26,231 nt of DNA from the IMG/VR virus record IMGVR_UViG_3300034093_001947; one strand, 5' to 3'. Below, one piece after another: positions 6,015-26,231 of the stretch. Positions within the stretch are counted from its first letter, which is position 1; every line of letters starts with the position of its first letter. Under the pieces are notes generated by a model. That model was not told the origin of the DNA and did no database searches. It saw only the letters and a program-made list of their open reading frames with translations. This DNA is from a virus. Its lineage: Duplodnaviria > Heunggongvirae > Uroviricota > Caudoviricetes. A program made the translations under genes and the position numbers.

Positions 6015-6096
6015 GTGAATATTTAACAGCCCACAGCCGATTGAGAAATAATTCTGTTTGAGTTAAGGTAAATATAGCTAAACAGGATATTTCACT

Positions 6097-10573: not shown

Positions 10574-11317
10574 ATGTTCACATTAACTAGAAACTCACTG
10601 ATAGTATTCCAAATACTAGCACATCTTTCATTCTTTGTACTGCTTTATTACGGCACACTTGCACAATGGGCCATTACCGCAGGACTGTATCTTTTCTTTG
10701 CCACTATCGGTGGTACAGTAACTTATCACAGATTACTGACTCACAGATCCTTTAAAGCACCCAAGTGGTTTGAATATTTTGGAACCGTTGTGGGATCAAT
10801 TGGTGGTGGTGGTTCTAGCCTAGGTTGGGTAGCTGTGCATAGAGAACATCACAAGTTTACTGATCTCGAGAAGGATCCCCACAGTCCCTGGTTTAAAGGT
10901 TTCTTTAGAGTACAATTTTTAAGTATGTTTGAAGTACCTAATATTCGTTACGTACCGGACCTGTTGCGTTCTAAATTTCATATGTGGATGCATCATTACT
11001 ACTGGCTAGTAAATTTAATTTATATCACAATCATCTGCCTAATCGATCCGTTTGCAATTTTCTATGCATACTTTGTTCCTACCTTATTTGTATGGCATGC
11101 CGGCAGTTTTACCAATACAGTAAATCATTCTCTAGGATATCAAAATTTTGACACCGGTGATCGTAGCACTAATAATCTAATCACAGGATATCTAATTGCC
11201 GGAGAAGGATGGCACAATAATCATCATTCTCGTGCTAGCGATCCGCAATTTGGTAAGAAGTGGTGGGAGTTTGATCTAGGTTGGCAAGTAATTAAGCTCG
11301 TGAAAAAGGACTCCTAG
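10574..11317 (+). CDS. Delta-9-type membrane fatty acid desaturase (DesC/Ole1-like)
   Basis: Three His boxes HRLLTH, HREHH and HNNHH, plus DPHSP, NTVNH and GEGWHNNHH motifs, and hydrophobic TM segments. Confidence 0.92.
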   Translation: MFTLTRNSLIVFQILAHLSFFVLLYYGTLAQWAITAGLYLFFATIGGTVTYHRLLTHRSFKAPKWFEYFGTVVGSIGGGGSSLGWVAVHREHHKFTDLEKDPHSPWFKGFFRVQFLSMFEVPNIRYVPDLLRSKFHMWMHHYYWLVNLIYITIICLIDPFAIFYAYFVPTLFVWHAGSFTNTVNHSLGYQNFDTGDRSTNNLITGYLIAGEGWHNNHHSRASDPQFGKKWWEFDLGWQVIKLVKKDS

Positions 11318-17605: not shown

Positions 17606-18134
17606 TCAACAAACTGTCTAACACAGTTTGATAATCATGATTAAGCCATTGATAAGAAAAAAACTTTCTAATCTTTAATTTCGGTTTATGCACACTATGC
17701 GGCTTACTTACATTTAATAAGTAAGCCGTATTCTTTTCTGCACTAAATCTACATCGCTCTGTAAGTTGATCTAGATGGAATACATTTTCTCCTTGTTCTT
17801 TGATATTGCTGAGATGCTGTGTTTCGGCAGTTTCGTCAAAGAACACAGTTGACGAGTCGTCAGTTTGAAAATACCAATTTAGATTACAACCCACTCCTAG
17901 ATCTGTGTGAGGTTGTAAATATCCTCTACCGACTATTTCAGAATAGAAAACTCTGTTAGGCGGAATGCTGGATATAGGATTGTAATGCAGGCTTTTGAAT
18001 AGCTCTATATCGTTAATTTGGTGAAGGAAAATAATCACATCCGGGTAGCCGTATTGAAATACTAGCGGGCCTTTTAACTGCTCGTATTCAAATGGTTTAA
18101 GTTCGAAATCGAATTTTTGAAAATATTGTTGCAT
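17586..18134 (-). CDS. Putative 2OG-Fe(II) oxygenase/cupin-fold protein
   Basis: Likely start ATG 18134 (MQQYFQ), 7 nt after TATAAATA (18142-18149). Motifs PHTD (HxD), LLNVSKPHSV (distal His) and downstream RKFFS. Confidence 0.55.
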   Translation of the reverse strand: MQQYFQKFDFELKPFEYEQLKGPLVFQYGYPDVIIFLHQINDIELFKSLHYNPISSIPPNRVFYSEIVGRGYLQPHTDLGVGCNLNWYFQTDDSSTVFFDETAETQHLSNIKEQGENVFHLDQLTERCRFSAEKNTAYLLNVSKPHSVHKPKLKIRKFFSYQWLNHDYQTVLDSLLIKKADC

Positions 18135-18158
18135 TGGCAAATATTTATAGTCCTTTAT

Positions 18159-18187
18159 TTGCGTTATGATAAAAACTTTAGTATAAT
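18159..18187 (+). promoter_or_regulatory. Sigma70-type promoter TTGCGT-N17-TATAAT
   Basis: -35 at 18159-18164, -10 at 18182-18187, ATG 7 nt downstream. Back-to-back with the minus-strand late promoter. Confidence 0.65.
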
Positions 18188-18194
18188 TATTACT

Positions 18195-18893
18195 ATGATT
18201 TATACTCCACCACCTTTTGTAGAACACATACAATATAAGCCCTGCCAACAAATAAACGATCCCATAACTCGTAAAAGAGTTTATCTAACTCCGGACGGAG
18301 AAAAGACTCCTAGCGTTACTACCATCCTTGGCTCAACTAAAGACCAAACTCACTTAATCGAATGGCGTAAGCGAGTAGGTGAAGAAAACGCTGCACAGAT
18401 AACTAAAGAAGCTTCTGGTGTCGGTACTGCAATGCACAACAACCTAGAAAGATTCATAGCCGGACTGGAGCGTCAGCCGGGCAATAACCTAGTTCATGTG
18501 CAGGCTAACAAAATGGCCAATGTTATTATCGAGCAGGGTCTAAAGGATGTTAACGAAGTTTGGGCAATGGAGCAAAGCCTATACTTTCCCGGACTGTATT
18601 CGGGTACCACTGACCTTGTGGCAGTGTACAAAGGCAATCCCAGTGTGTGCGATTATAAACAGACTAACAAGCCTAAGAAAGCAGAATGGGTTGAAGACTA
18701 CTTCTTACAGCTAATGGCTTACATACTGGCACATAACGAAGTGTACGGGACAGAAATTCGTGAAGGTCATGTGTTCATGTGCAGTAGAGATCTGCAATAT
18801 CAACAGTTTGATCTAACTCCGGATAACTTTAACAAGTATCAAGACATGTGGCTTGCTAAAGTTGAAGACTATTACTTGAATTATCACAAGTGA
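18195..18893 (+). CDS. PD-(D/E)XK exonuclease (Cas4/MGME1/AddB-like phage exonuclease)
   Basis: PSVTTIL, GTAMH, EQSL, GTTDLV, CDYKQ and YFLQLMAY. Likely start ATG 18195 (MIYTPPPF). Confidence 0.88.
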   Translation: MIYTPPPFVEHIQYKPCQQINDPITRKRVYLTPDGEKTPSVTTILGSTKDQTHLIEWRKRVGEENAAQITKEASGVGTAMHNNLERFIAGLERQPGNNLVHVQANKMANVIIEQGLKDVNEVWAMEQSLYFPGLYSGTTDLVAVYKGNPSVCDYKQTNKPKKAEWVEDYFLQLMAYILAHNEVYGTEIREGHVFMCSRDLQYQQFDLTPDNFNKYQDMWLAKVEDYYLNYHK

Positions 18894-21746: not shown

Positions 21747-22181
21747 ATGTTTAACCTATCTCCGGATGAGAGATTGAGTGCCTGGGCCGATCACAGGCAT
21801 AGTCTCGACTCTTCTGAAAATCCTTTAGAAACACTAATCGAGTTTTGGGATCACCCTCCATATGTTCCATTCAACAGGAACGTAGATCCTTACAATCAAA
21901 GAAGCTGGCCTACACCTTGGGAAATCATTATTGAAAACAAATACGATGATTTTACCAAAGTATTAATGATAGCCTGGACATTAAAGTTAACTGCCACGTT
22001 TAAAGACAGTAAGGTAGAGATAAAAACATATACAGATGCACACAGATCTAGACAATATAATCTAGTGTTCATCGATGATGAGTTTGTTATTAACTACACA
22101 GATAATGATATAAACAAACCTAGCGATATTCCTGAGTCATTTCAACTAGAAAATCTAATTGAAGTACAGAGGCCTAGGTAA
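21747..22181 (+). CDS. Hypothetical protein
   Basis: 144-aa ORF 3 nt after the upstream stop. Confidence 0.7.
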   Translation: MFNLSPDERLSAWADHRHSLDSSENPLETLIEFWDHPPYVPFNRNVDPYNQRSWPTPWEIIIENKYDDFTKVLMIAWTLKLTATFKDSKVEIKTYTDAHRSRQYNLVFIDDEFVINYTDNDINKPSDIPESFQLENLIEVQRPR

Positions 22182-22249
22182 ATATCACTCTAAGTAGTAA
22201 AAAGAAAAAGCGGGCTCCCGGGCCACAAAATAAAAAGAACAGGTGGACA

Positions 22250-24595
22250 ATGACTATTCAAGTAGTTAAACGTAGTGGACAACGAGTTCCACTAGATATT
22301 TCAAAAATACAAAGACAAGTAGCATTTAGCTGCCACGGAATAGACGGAGTTAGTCCGTCTATGATCGAGATCAAAGCACAGTTAGAATTTCATGATGGCA
22401 TGACCACTAATACTATCGACGAATTGCTGTTAAAGGCAATGGTTGATCTAATTGACGAAGAAGAAAATCCCGAGATTAATAATGTTAACTATCAGTACGT
22501 AGCAGGCCGCCAACGTCTAAGTATGTTGCGTAAAGAAGTATACGGAGCATACGAGCCGCCTAAACTATTCAGCATTGTTAAGAAGAATGTTGAACTAGGC
22601 ATGTACACTAGCGAACTGCTAGACTGGTACACAGAAGACGAATGGAACATTATTGACCTATTCATCGATCATGCAAGAGACGAGCAATATACATTTGCTG
22701 CTATTGCACAGCTAGCAGAAAAGTATCTAGTACAGAATCGTGCCACTAATACAATATACGAAACTCCGCAGGTACGTTATGCAGTTGCAGCCGCTACGGC
22801 ATTTCATGCAGAGTCTAAAGATGCTAGACTAAAGTGGGTAAAAGAATACTACGAGTGTGCTCGAGACGGACACTTTACACTGGCCACTCCTGTTCTCGCC
22901 GGTCTAGGTACGACCACCAAACAATTTAGCAGTTGTGTGCTGATCAGCACTGACGATACACTGGACAGTATCTTTGCAAGCGGCGAAATGATGGCCAAAT
23001 ATGCTTCAAAACGAGCCGGTATCGGTCTAGAAATTGGCAGAATCAGACCTTTAGGTGCCCCAATTCGTAACGGTGAGATCAAGCATACAGGAATGATTCC
23101 TTTCTTGAAGAAATGGTTCGCAGACCTCCGCAGTTGCAGCCAGGGTGGTATCCGTAATGCATCATGCACAGTAACATATCCTATTTGGCACGCTCAGTTC
23201 GAAGATCTTATTGTGCTAAAGAACAATCAAGGTACTGAAGAAAATCGTGTACGACAAATGGATTACTCAGTTGTGGTTAACAAGATGTTTTGGAATCGTT
23301 ATAAGAATGGTGAAATGATGACATTGTTTGATCCAGCAGAAGTTCCGGATCTTTACGAAGCATACTATCGCAACTCGGCAGAGTTTGAAACATTGTATTT
23401 GAAATACGAGCAAGACAAGACAAAGAAAAAGAAAGTTGTATCGGCAGATGCGATATTCAAAGCTGGAATACTTAAAGAGCGTACTGATACTGGTCGTATC
23501 TATCTTGTTAACATTGACAACGTTATCAACCAAGGCTCGTTTGATACAACAGTTGATCCAATTTATCAATCCAATCTATGCCAAGAGATACTTTTACCTA
23601 CCCGTCCTTTCCAGAGAATTGAAGATCCAGAGGGACGAATTGCTCTTTGCACTCTTGGCAGCATCAACTGGGGAGCATTCCGTAACCCACAAGAGATGAA
23701 AAAAGCCTGTCGTGTGTTAGTACGTAGCCTAAGTAATTTGTTGAACTATCAAGACTTCTTAAGCATACAGAGCAAGCTGGCTAACACAGACTTTGAACCG
23801 TTAGGTGTTGGCATTACTAACTTGGCCTATTGGCATGCCCGTAAAGGATACAAGTACGGTGAAGCAGAAGCACTTGCAGAAGTTAAACGTTGGATGGAAC
23901 ACCAGGCATACTACCTTACCGAAACTAGTGTCGAGCTTGCCCAAGAACGTGGGCCATGCGGACGTAGTCAGCACACTTATTACGGTAAGGGAGTATTTCC
24001 TTGGGAACGCCGCAATCCCGGAGTTAACGAACTAACAGATTTCACTCCTAGCCTAGATTGGGAACCATTGCGAGCACGTATGATCAAATACGGTATTCGT
24101 AATGCTACACTAATGGCAGTGGCACCAGTTGAGTCTAGTTCAGTAGTATTAAACAGTACTAATGGAATTGAGATGCCAATGGAATTAATTTCTGTTAAAG
24201 AATCTAAAGCTGGATCGTTTGTACAGGTAGTACCAGAATATCGTCGCCTAAAGAATCGTTATCAGATGATGTGGGATCAGACCAACTGCGTTGATTATCT
24301 GAAGACAGCCGCAGTATTAGCAGCTTACATTGATCAATCATTGAGTACTAACACATTCTATAATCCTGCACACTTTGCTAACGGTAAGGTACCTGCTACA
24401 CTAATTGCCAAGAACTTGATGTTGGCATACAGGTGGGGCATTAAGACCATTTATTATAGCCTAATTAACAAGGTAGGTGCTAAGACTAACGTCACTGCAA
24501 CTACACAGGTTAATGGTATAAACGGATTTGCAATTAATGCGGCAGACAACGTGATCATTTATGATGACGCCGATTGCGAGGCATGTAAGTTATAA
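22250..24595 (+). CDS. nrdA: Class I ribonucleotide reductase alpha subunit with ATP cone
   Basis: ATP cone VVKRSG, TPQ, LATPV, FSSC (C225), SNLCQEI (N437/C439/E441), ALCTLGSIN (C462), APVESSS, KTIYY (Y730/Y731) and C-terminal DCEACKL. TAAATA at 22179-22184. Confidence 0.97.
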
Positions 24596-24924
24596 TGGAT
24601 CAAGTAACAATATCAGAATCGGCTGTTATTAAAATCACAGACCTACTAGCAGAGGAGAATAATCCTAAGTTAAAACTTAGGACATTTGTCCAAGGTGGCG
24701 GATGTTCTGGATTTCAGTACGGATTTACATTTGACGAAGAACAACACGAAGACGATTTTGTTGTAGAAAAACAAGGTGTAAAAATATTGATTGATGCAAT
24801 GAGTATGCAGTATCTTAGTGGTGCTGTAATTGATTACAAAGAAGATTTGCAAGGTAGTCAATTCAGTATTCAAAATCCTAATGCACAATCAACCTGTGGT
24901 TGTGGGAGCAGTTTTTCAGTATGA
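24595..24924 (+). CDS. erpA: A-type Fe-S carrier ErpA/IscA
   Basis: [27 protein letters not shown] and [14 protein letters not shown] (three Cys ligands). TAATG overlap with nrdA. Confidence 0.93.
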
Positions 24925-25469
24925 CCTATAGTTTTATTAGACATGTTCTACAAGAAGGCAAACCAGAAAAGTTGGAAATTATAAATCTACCTTATGATAC
25001 CAATGACCTTGAACCTGTGATCTCAGAAGACACCATCAATTACCATTATGGCAAATTAGCAAAAATTTATGCTGAACGGTACAACAAAAATGAAGGTGAT
25101 TCAGTTTTTAATGAAGCTGGTGTATTCTTACACAACATTTTGTTTCAGCAGTATCAAGCACCAACTAACTCCAATAAACCTATTGGTAGTATCTTAGAAT
25201 TTATTATCAAACATTATAAAGACTTTGACAAATTTAAAGAATCCTTTGCTAATGAGGCAATGGCTATTCAAGGCAGTGGTTGGGTCTATCTTGCCAAAGA
25301 CGGTAAAATTAAAACTATCGTCAATCACCAAATTAAAAAAGATATTGTGTTGTTAATTGATTGGTGGGAACATGCGTGGGCATTGGACTACAAACATGAC
25401 AAAAAGAAATACTTAGATAATCAGTGGAAGATTATCAACTGGGAGAAAATAAATGGCATACTCAGATAA
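24921..25469 (+). CDS. sod: Fe/Mn superoxide dismutase family protein (short, divergent)
   Basis: [27 protein letters not shown] and DWWEHAW. Start ATG 24921 overlaps the erpA stop (ATGA). Confidence 0.88.
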
Positions 25470-25827
25470 AGTTGTTGATCATTACGAAAACCCACGTAAT
25501 GTAGGTAAGTTTGAAATTGACGACACAGTTGGCACAGGTATGGTCGGAGCACCTGCTTGTGGAGATGTGATGAAGTTACAGATAAAGGTAGATGAAGATG
25601 GTATTATTAGAGATGCTCGTTTCAAGACATATGGATGCGGTTCAGCAATCGCCAGTTCGTCGTTGGTTACAGAGTGGGTTAAGGGTATGCATATTGATGA
25701 TGCTGTTAACCTTAAAAACTCCCAAATCGCCGAAGAACTAGCACTACCGCCTGTCAAGATACATTGCTCAATTCTAGCAGAAGATGCTATCAAAGCCGCA
25801 GTAGAAGATTATAGAAAGAAACATTAA
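25453..25827 (+). CDS. iscU: Fe-S cluster scaffold IscU
   Basis: [43 protein letters not shown] and LPPVKIHCSILAEDAIKAA. Confidence 0.96.
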   Translation: MAYSDKVVDHYENPRNVGKFEIDDTVGTGMVGAPACGDVMKLQIKVDEDGIIRDARFKTYGCGSAIASSSLVTEWVKGMHIDDAVNLKNSQIAEELALPPVKIHCSILAEDAIKAAVEDYRKKH

Positions 25828-26231
25828 TGTTAGAAACAATCTGTGACATAATGGTAGACGCTTATAAGCGTAACTGGATTACTAGCCGAGATGGTAACGT
25901 GAGTATTCGTCATCACGACCGTGATCACTTTTACATCACACCAAGCGGTGTACGTAAACAAACACTACAACCTGACCAGTTCAAGAAGATTGGCATTGAG
26001 AAAGGATTCTGGGATCAGCCTCCTCGACTGTATCATGCAACTAAAGAGTTAGACTATACTGAAATTAGTGCTAACCTGAAGCCTAGTGGGGAACTACCAT
26101 TGCACTTTGGTTTGCAAAAAGAAATGGGACAACACACAGGCGACGTTCGTGTAGTTGTACACGTTCACCCAACTTATTGCATTGCGGCAATGCATGCCGG
26201 TATTGATTTGAGTACTGTGAGTGCAGCCTTT
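25827..26231 (+). CDS. Class II aldolase/adducin family protein (FucA/MtnB-like), 3'-truncated by the window
   Basis: MLETICDIMVDAYKRNWITSRDGNVSIR...ITPSG...KPSGELPLH...VVHVHPTY. GNxSxR, TPSG, PSxE..H and HxH motifs are present. TAATG overlap with iscU. Confidence 0.85.
   Translation, partial: MLETICDIMVDAYKRNWITSRDGNVSIRHHDRDHFYITPSGVRKQTLQPDQFKKIGIEKGFWDQPPRLYHATKELDYTEISANLKPSGELPLHFGLQKEMGQHTGDVRVVVHVHPTYCIAAMHAGIDLSTVSAAF

Follow-up and report, generated by a model that had tools for sequence, protein, structure and literature searches.

Iron-sulfur (Fe-S) cluster assembly genes have been described for several groups of viruses. Sixteen marine viral genomes code for an A-type carrier (ATC) and/or the scaffold protein IscU, one of them T4-like and equipped with an ATC as well as 12 radical-SAM genes, and it was proposed that viral Fe-S assembly genes serve virus-encoded Fe-S proteins of the radical-SAM type (Nishimura 2017, PMC5332604). 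The combination of iscU and erpA is known from HMO-2011-type phages (Du 2022, PMC9038755), and iscU and A-type carriers (erpA) have been listed as auxiliary metabolic genes from lakes (PMC13760526). In Escherichia coli, the aerobic relay leads from IscU via IscA or SufA to ErpA and from there to the apo-target (Vinella 2009, PMC2682760). Here we describe a block of five genes, nrdA-erpA-sod-iscU-aldolase, at the end of a viral DNA stretch of 26,231 nt (IMG/VR record IMGVR_UViG_3300034093_001947), which is referred to as the window. The block combines a ribonucleotide reductase (RNR) gene with two Fe-S genes, a superoxide dismutase (SOD) gene, and an aldolase-like gene. A sequence-only reading had taken it for a candidate undescribed system, but phage iscU together with erpA or another ATC and without iscS has already been published in the three viral studies cited above.

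The phages studied here resemble the viruses from these reports in having IscU and an A-type carrier without a desulfurase and many radical-SAM genes in T4-like genomes, and the same role, a supply of viral and host Fe-S proteins, is proposed. They differ in that both carrier types and SOD form a set that is found per genome in freshwater jumbo phages of ~350 kb, and in that the genes are often translationally coupled between nrdA and nrdB. We consider the block to be one permutation of a fluid accessory set in the gap between nrdA and nrdB, which may extend the iron-sulfur cluster (ISC) pathway of the host downstream of IscS and would mainly feed radical-SAM enzymes of the phage; we give this explanation an even chance of being correct. 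The literature, which was covered incompletely, yielded no description of SOD or Fe-S genes within nrd operons of phages; this is no proof of novelty. Two phage protein clades appear to be new, one of short SODs and one of aldolase-like proteins, both almost confined to nrd operons. We also regard as new a second RNR lineage with the same embedding of Fe-S genes.

Two bacterial systems are close to the block. As in the E. coli ISC pathway, the phage IscU and ErpA pass their equivalog thresholds, ligands and the LPPVK motif are kept, and iscU-iscA adjacency is retained in most phage relatives. However, the relatives lack iscR, iscS, hscB, hscA, and fdx, erpA is beside iscU while it is found elsewhere in bacteria, and the SOD gene is interleaved. 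The E. coli nrdA-nrdB-yfaE operon likewise has an iron-related accessory gene that is co-transcribed with class Ia RNR genes, its product being a 2Fe-2S ferredoxin by which the NrdB cofactor is maintained. The phage accessory genes, in contrast, code for assembly factors and a SOD and not for an electron donor, and a 2Fe-2S ferredoxin of the YfaE type (Fer2) was not found in 8 contigs including two complete genomes.

Five open reading frames (ORFs) on the plus strand fill positions 22250-26231 of the window:

22250..24595, plus strand: nrdA, coding for the alpha subunit of a class Ia ribonucleotide reductase, 781 aa, ATP-cone at the N-terminus and CxxC at the C-terminus
24595..24924, plus strand: erpA, type I A-type Fe-S carrier, 109 aa, NCBIfam ErpA equivalog
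24921..25469, plus strand: sod, short superoxide dismutase of the Fe/Mn type, 182 aa with the ATG at 24921 as start, assigned by Pfam
25453..25827, plus strand: iscU, Fe-S cluster scaffold, 124 aa, NCBIfam TIGR01999
25827..26231, plus strand: class II aldolase/adducin-fold gene, Pfam PF00596, the 5′ 135 codons, cut by the window end

The chain of overlapping genes proposed in the sequence-only reading was confirmed for all ORFs and all junctions. The start codon of erpA overlaps the stop codon of nrdA (TAATG), erpA and sod share an ATGA, sod and iscU overlap by 17 nt, and a second TAATG connects iscU to the aldolase-like gene. All four junctions of the block are thus overlapping, compared to about 3 of the 16 same-strand junctions elsewhere in the window. 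The block is packed more tightly than the local norm, although such overlaps are ordinary in phages. The Cys ligands of ErpA and IscU, which had been described as intact, are indeed present, as are all other metal and cluster ligands of the block, and they are invariant in relatives. The data support that these are real genes, maintained by purifying selection.

Gene order was surveyed in four samples of 80 loci each (320 loci), which were selected for IscU, SOD, aldolase, and NrdA, respectively. The loci are phylogenetically related; the SOD-selected sample comes from metagenomes, and the NrdA-selected sample is unbiased for cargo. In the closest relatives (L003-L005, 94-100% identity at the protein level) the order is nrdA-erpA-iscU-aldolase-nrdB-glutaredoxin-x-thyX-...-dCMP deaminase, from which it follows that the block lies between the two RNR subunit genes. 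Relative to these loci, SOD is an extra insertion in the window. The exact order of the window, ErpA-SOD-IscU-Ald, was not met in the 320 surveyed loci. The nearest orders within the gap are ErpA-IscU-Ald, ErpA-IscU-SOD, and SOD-IscU-Ald, and an ErpA-SOD-IscU-IscA cluster is found just outside the operon in one genome (G018). More than 20 gap architectures combine ErpA, IscU, IscA, SOD, and aldolase in different ways, so the conserved gene order that an RNR-attached module would be expected to show was not recovered. The ATGA junction between ErpA and SOD recurs in L366, where the two proteins are 53% and 40% identical to those of the window.

The genes differ in how closely they are tied to RNR. 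An A-type carrier is found in 76 of the 80 IscU-selected loci, at a distance of up to 150 nt from IscU in 58 of them, and 52 loci contain an RNR gene. When both subunit genes are present (37 loci), IscU is between them in 8 cases and otherwise mostly 1-6 kb downstream of the glutaredoxin gene grx. For SOD, the left neighbour is NrdA in 46 of 80 loci and the right neighbour is NrdB (23), IscU (21), or the aldolase-like gene (21), together 65 of 80; SOD is inside the gap in all 44 loci that have both subunit genes. The aldolase-like gene has NrdB to its right in 50 of 80 loci and NrdA to its left in 38. Among the NrdA-selected loci, the gap is empty in 47 of 80, about 23 have other inserts, and 10 carry an iron/redox cassette, while IscU or an ATC occurs within 6 kb in only 5 of the 80. 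The proposed tie of the module to RNR thus stands for SOD and the aldolase-like gene, which are strongly linked to the nrd operon; it is weakened by the gap being a general insertion hot spot and by the missing YfaE-type ferredoxin.

Such a hot spot has a precedent. In phage T4, mobE lies between nrdA and nrdB, and the nrd region of T-even phages is a hot spot for endonuclease insertion (Wilson and Edgell 2009, PMC2790892). The site in the relatives of the window phage is the same intergenic position, these are also T4-like phages, and free-standing HNH and GIY-YIG genes occur: a SegE-like GIY-YIG endonuclease in L313 and HNH/NUMOD endonucleases in L306 and L281. The window itself has no endonuclease gene. 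In contrast to T4, the site mostly holds metabolic cargo in this lineage, in many combinations (Fe-S proteins, SOD, aldolase-like proteins, oxygenases, isocitrate lyase). Further inserts are oxygenases that resemble Asp/Asn-hydroxylases (2-oxoglutarate type), a methyltransferase-like protein, and several unknown ORFs. The gap between nrdA and nrdB is a recombination and insertion hot spot, holding endonucleases as well as unrelated cargo. In the cultured Xanthomonas phage X1 and Stenotrophomonas phage YB07, which belong to the same NrdA/NrdB clade, none of the Fe-S, SOD, and aldolase-like genes is found at the nrd site.

Some insertions are unusual. A 401-aa isocitrate lyase (Pfam ICL, E 4e-104) is coded between nrdA and nrdB at L328:3444-4646, which is an unusual auxiliary gene for a phage. 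The nrdA gene itself is split by insertions of ~1-1.3 kb in L044 (960 nt) and L241 (1299 nt), and in the latter locus an HNH-like ORF (L241:5923-6573) lies between SOD and nrdB. The two nrdA splits are consistent with an invasion of nrd genes by inteins, introns, or endonucleases.

Embedding of Fe-S genes is not restricted to one type of RNR. A second class I RNR, which shows only 21-24% identity and is devoid of an ATP-cone, has subunit genes that are separated or immediately followed by IscU, IscA, and ErpA, e.g. in the order nrdA'-h82-IscU-IscA-h210-ErpA-nrdB' (L007). The gap of this second lineage, and occasionally that of the first, contains a conserved 210-aa protein (L007:10701-11330, L028, L213, L332) from PHROG 3704, which is labelled 'ferredoxin'. 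This label was not adopted; the protein has no Pfam match and no obvious Fe-S Cys motif. It also shows no similarity to the aldolase.

Three relatives with complete or largely complete genomes allow the set to be followed beyond the nrd operon:

G016: 363,943 bp, 100% complete; 1 IscU, 2 A-type carriers, 1 SOD, 10 Radical_SAM matches
G017: 349,369 bp, 97% complete; 1 IscU, 2 A-type carriers, 1 SOD, 15 Radical_SAM matches
G018: 278 kb, 75% complete; 1 IscU, 2 A-type carriers, 1 SOD, 12 Radical_SAM matches

Per genome, the lineage retains a single IscU and a single SOD as well as one carrier of the IscA type and one of the ErpA type. Their positions vary. In G016, the nrd operon contains SOD and aldolase, with IscU-IscA at a distance of 92 kb. 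G017 has IscU-ATC 7 kb upstream of the nrd operon and SOD-ErpA 54 kb away from it, and in G018 the ErpA-SOD-IscU-IscA cluster lies 3 kb from the operon. The gene set is conserved, while its linkage to the nrd operon is not.

Several observations place the window phage. A megablast comparison of the block to 50,697 phage records gave no match. IMG/VR fragments of 71-114 kb with the same IscU are rated 20-32% complete, which points to genomes of ~350 kb, and two contigs from the same RNR lineage code for the T4 protein gp23. The window phage is an uncultured T4-like jumbo phage from freshwater (lake) with a genome of ~350 kb. Its host is probably a bacterium from the Burkholderiales.

Radical-SAM genes accompany IscU in this lineage. 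Nine of ten IscU contigs have 2-13 Radical_SAM matches per 71-114 kb fragment, while two complete jumbo phage genomes without IscU (287 and 349 kb) have no Radical_SAM match. A Fisher test of the co-occurrence gave p = 0.01, on contigs that are not independent. NrdB has a di-iron site and not an Fe-S cluster as cofactor. The 10-15 radical-SAM genes per genome suggest a more direct client of the IscU/IscA/ErpA relay than NrdB. Within the window, a PD-(D/E)XK nuclease (18117-18890) was considered as a local Fe-S client but is not an obvious one, being devoid of the four-Cys motif of the Cas4 type. The window also codes for a fatty-acid desaturase (10574-11317, plus strand; Pfam FA_desaturase, E 3e-15), another di-iron enzyme of this phage.

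The upstream part of the ISC machinery is missing from the relatives. There is no match to the desulfurase family PF00266 in 14 contigs including two complete genomes, and none of G016, G017, and G018 has a PF00266, Fer2, or HscB (HSCB_C) protein. An HSP70 protein is coded near the block in G016 and G018 and was considered as HscA. It was rejected because it matches DnaK with 986 bits (cut-off 648) and HscA with 598 bits (cut-off 708). The absence of iscS and hscAB, which had been claimed for the window phage, therefore holds in two relatives with 97-100% complete genomes; the window's own genome is outside the scope of that check. As the complete relatives have no cysteine desulfurase, HscB, or HscA, reliance on the IscS of the host is plausible.

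The window IscU is well assigned as a scaffold protein. It scores above the curated equivalog cut-off (TIGR01999, 215.3 versus 192.4 bits; Pfam NifU_N, E 9e-53) and its translation contains the HscA-binding motif LPPVK. The residues C36, D38, C62, H104, and C105, which match E. coli Cys37, Asp39, Cys63, His105, and Cys106, are invariant in all 81 phage homologues. The nearest bacterial homologues, with 82-87% identity, are from Comamonadaceae and Burkholderiaceae (Burkholderiales). A quick tree with unknown root separates the phage IscUs as a single group from 75 betaproteobacterial sequences (SH-aLRT 95). ErpA is equally well assigned (NF010147, 174.7 bits versus a cut-off of 117), with C37, C101, and C103 (C-x~63-C-G-C) invariant in 20 of 20 phage homologues. 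The cysteines of the second carrier, the IscA-type protein from the phage relatives, are invariant in 67 of 67.

Three IscU sequences require comment. In G014 (the contig of L321), IscU is split by an in-frame TGA or a frameshift (33748-34127), possibly representing a pseudogene or an assembly error. L095 (NZ_JBBAKG010000031.1), from a metagenome-assembled genome (MAG) named 'Haliscomenobacter', has a phage-type IscU-IscA pair and a phage NrdA (69%), and its IscU clusters with those of the phages; this contig probably belongs to a phage and was binned into a MAG from the Bacteroidota. In L101, an IscU of the Comamonadaceae type occurs in a cyanobacterial MAG ('Synechococcus'); this locus is probably misbinned, too.

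SOD matches Pfam Sod_Fe_N and Sod_Fe_C but is far below the NCBIfam equivalog cut-offs for SodA/SodB (85 versus 348 bits). Alignments to Fe and cambialistic SODs from the PDB place all four metal ligands. H42, H71, D147, and H151 correspond to His26, His73/81, Asp156/167, and His160/171, Y50 corresponds to Tyr34, and these five residues never vary in 76 distinct homologues. In the same 76 homologues, the position of the gateway His30 is always Leu (Leu46) and the inter-subunit YY pair is always Trp153-Ala154. The phage proteins form a conserved, divergent subclade of putative SODs. Fe/Mn SODs of the same short type (~160-190 aa) occur in cultured jumbo phages, namely the Pseudomonas PA5oct group (41% identity) and Vibrio phage 2.275.O (36%). 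In those phages, however, SOD is found among chaperone/protease or translation genes and not beside RNR genes, and they have neither an IscU-linked context nor radical-SAM matches.

The aldolase-like protein, which has ~218 aa at full length in relatives, was studied on a full-length relative (L003:10375-11028) that is 80% identical over the part contained in the window. This protein matches Pfam PF00596 (E 2.6e-27), and its AlphaFold2 model (pLDDT 93.5) has a class II aldolase fold with a Foldseek probability of 1.00 to 6btd, 4c24, 1jdi, and 4m6r. The metal ligands E91, H114, H116, and H186 are conserved and the phosphate-binding motifs GN, TPSG, and PSGE are kept. It thus shares the fold (TM-score 0.65-0.74), the E/H/H/H ligands, and the phosphate motifs with the 5-deoxyribulose-1-phosphate aldolase DrdA (6btd) and with FucA, RhaD, AraD, and MtnB, but it is only 15-21% identical to them and scores far below every NCBIfam equivalog cut-off, with OtnC considered in addition to these enzymes. 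DrdA, an aldolase that acts on radical-SAM by-products, ranked first in Foldseek but was not assigned, as its margin over FucA, RhaD, AraD, and MtnB is negligible. The subfamily is small, with 34 clusters at E<=1e-30. Homologues were found on contigs of 190-381 kb, and none was found in cultured phages.

NrdA has an ATP-cone, an all-alpha, and a barrel domain, matches Pfam ATP-cone, Ribonuc_red_lgN, and lgC, and scores above the class Ia cut-off (NCBIfam NF006578, 819 versus 813 bits). The closest NrdA and NrdB proteins are from Xanthomonas phage X1 (61-63% identity, 61% for the NrdA of the window) and from Stenotrophomonas phages. As the window ends within the aldolase-like gene, nrdB is outside of it and its features were read in relatives. 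Their NrdB can be aligned with E. coli R2 (E 5e-74), the Asp, Glu, and His ligands and the radical Tyr being present. This NrdB clade has one extra residue between the first metal Glu and His when compared to E115-T-I-H118 of E. coli R2. The corresponding motif F-F-E-T-N-I-H-S-[RK]-S-Y was found in one of the closest relatives (L003:11033-12130) and in 70 of 77 related NrdB genes, and also in phage X1 (L252:3995-5083). To our knowledge, an E-x-x-x-H variant of NrdB has not been described.

How might the set function? IscS of the host, together with host HscBA and Fdx, would load sulfur and iron onto the phage IscU, and this loading would be allowed by the LPPVK motif and the full set of ligands. 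Clusters would then pass from IscU to IscA and ErpA and on to the [4Fe-4S] radical-SAM proteins and other iron enzymes of the phage, a relay that may raise the Fe-S supply where the host machinery would be limiting. SOD may limit superoxide damage to solvent-exposed clusters and to the tyrosyl radical of NrdB, and the aldolase-like enzyme is predicted to act on a phosphorylated sugar. By residing in the nrd operon, the genes would be expressed along with an operon that is essential and strongly expressed. Endonuclease activity and the conserved flanks, nrdA and nrdB, may allow co-infecting phages to swap cassettes, with translational coupling being kept. The data fit best a conserved iron/redox set of this kind, for which the nrdA-nrdB hot spot is a frequent but not obligatory home.

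Several points weigh against this explanation. The co-occurrence of IscU and radical-SAM genes is based on 17 related contigs, most of which are fragments; one fragment without IscU has 7 radical-SAM matches, one IscU contig has none, and the pattern is imperfect among five NrdA-selected fragments. The radical-SAM counts and the absence of IscS are taken from relatives and not from the window's own genome. From a general Fe-S role, a much looser association of SOD and the aldolase-like gene with the nrd operon would be predicted than is observed, and an unrelated type of RNR (21-24% identical) likewise has Fe-S genes embedded between its subunit genes. The model as a whole is read from the genes.

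The latter observations would be accounted for by a module dedicated to the support of RNR, in which IscU and the carriers deliver iron or mature the reductant of NrdB, SOD protects the radical or helps to form it, and the aldolase-like enzyme is an accessory. E. coli biochemistry implicates SOD in formation of the R2 radical and superoxide in R2 inactivation. Besides the 44 of 44 loci with SOD in the gap, the frequent RNR neighbours of SOD (left NrdA in 46 of 80, right NrdB, IscU, or Ald in 65 of 80) and of the aldolase-like gene (right NrdB in 50, left NrdA in 38), and the Fe-S genes between alpha and beta of the second RNR (L007), it is in favour of this proposal that all junctions stay translationally coupled. 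We give it some weight but nevertheless consider it unlikely. NrdB works with a di-iron site instead of an Fe-S cluster, a YfaE-like ferredoxin is absent from the 8 contigs including two complete genomes, and IscU-IscA (G016) and SOD-ErpA (G017) can be as far as 92 and 54 kb from the nrd operon. Also, among the 80 closest NrdA loci the gap is empty in 47 and IscU or an ATC is within 6 kb in only 5, X1 and YB07 do without these genes at this site, and unrelated genes occupy the gap too. More doubtful still is a specific form of this idea, according to which SOD, the aldolase-like enzyme, and IscU/ErpA/IscA would be dedicated maintenance factors of the variant class Ia NrdB (E-T-N-I-H) and thus a phage counterpart of YfaE or NrdI. 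If true, the array between nrdA and nrdB would be a previously unrecognised system for assembly and protection of the RNR cofactor rather than a collection of generic auxiliary genes.

At the other extreme, the shared location may not reflect a joint function, the host-derived auxiliary genes being in the gap only because endonuclease cuts and conserved flanks ease DNA exchange. GIY-YIG and HNH/NUMOD genes, isocitrate lyase, oxygenases, and unknown ORFs in the same gap, the more than 20 architectures, the nrdA genes split by ~1 kb insertions (L044, L241), and the T4 precedent (PMC2790892, PMC3045599) are all in accordance with this. However, the pairs ErpA-SOD, SOD-IscU, and IscU-IscA are also kept together at sites outside the gap (L047, L051, L053, L247-L251, L363, L366, G017), the ATGA junction of ErpA and SOD has been kept between proteins that are just 40-53% identical, and the whole set is present once per genome in three near-complete genomes. 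These three features point to a functional iron/redox set, and we regard location without joint function as improbable. Manipulation of the host is a further alternative, in which phage IscU and carriers would be decoys, sequestering IscS or changing IscR signalling and thereby diverting sulfur and iron from host metabolism. The 82-87% identity to host-type IscU, the retained IscS- and HscA-interacting features, and the missing desulfurase would suit a decoy. But a decoy could do without cluster ligands, which never vary in IscU or in either carrier type. A full downstream relay and numerous phage Fe-S clients are in better agreement with productive assembly, and we consider a decoy function very unlikely.

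Two short elements were annotated upstream of the block:

22178..22186, plus strand: conserved box that matches GTAAATATC exactly and overlaps with the stop codon of the preceding gene; candidate promoter element for the operon
22241..22246, plus strand: Shine-Dalgarno-like AGGTGG, 3 nt before the nrdA ATG, read from the sequence

Almost all of 64 distinct relatives retain GGTAAATATC upstream of nrdA, in a spacer that otherwise diverges. Boxes similar to GTAAATATC are found on the plus strand at window positions 6068, 7275, 13601, 17915, and 22178, being 12-70 nt 5′ of several plus-strand gene starts, but the window total of 10 is not above chance (8.7 expected). What had been called a late-type promoter in the sequence-only reading is reduced to this conserved GGTAAATATC box, a candidate element. 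A scan of the sequence for sigma-70 promoters gave fewer matches than in shuffles, and a terminator scan yielded nothing useful inside the operon.

Other genes were found close to the ones described here. In G018 (L413, G018:36000-50800), genes for DnaK, an IbpA-like small heat-shock protein, and GMP reductase are located on the minus strand (1706-5206 of L413), a few kb from ErpA-SOD-IscU-IscA. In the nucleotide-metabolism operon of L003 (15046-16788), the dCMP deaminase gene is followed after 3 nt by a gene for a 411-aa enzyme that uses flavin adenine dinucleotide and resembles Trp halogenases. Homologues with 26-40% identity occur directly after iscU (L026, L030, L039) or nrdB (L189). This enzyme could hint at base modification.

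In summary, Fe-S assembly genes of phages are counted as auxiliary genes in viromes while their clients have been obscure, and the lineage described here provides a concrete case that can be tested. Its phages combine the full downstream relay (IscU, IscA, ErpA) and a SOD with 10-15 radical-SAM enzymes in genomes of ~350 kb that have no sulfur donor. The nrdA-nrdB hot spot of T4-type phages can serve as an exchange site for metabolic cassettes which keep their translational coupling. For the SOD and aldolase clades, the linkage to the nrd operon leads to the direct hypothesis that they function in deoxynucleotide synthesis.

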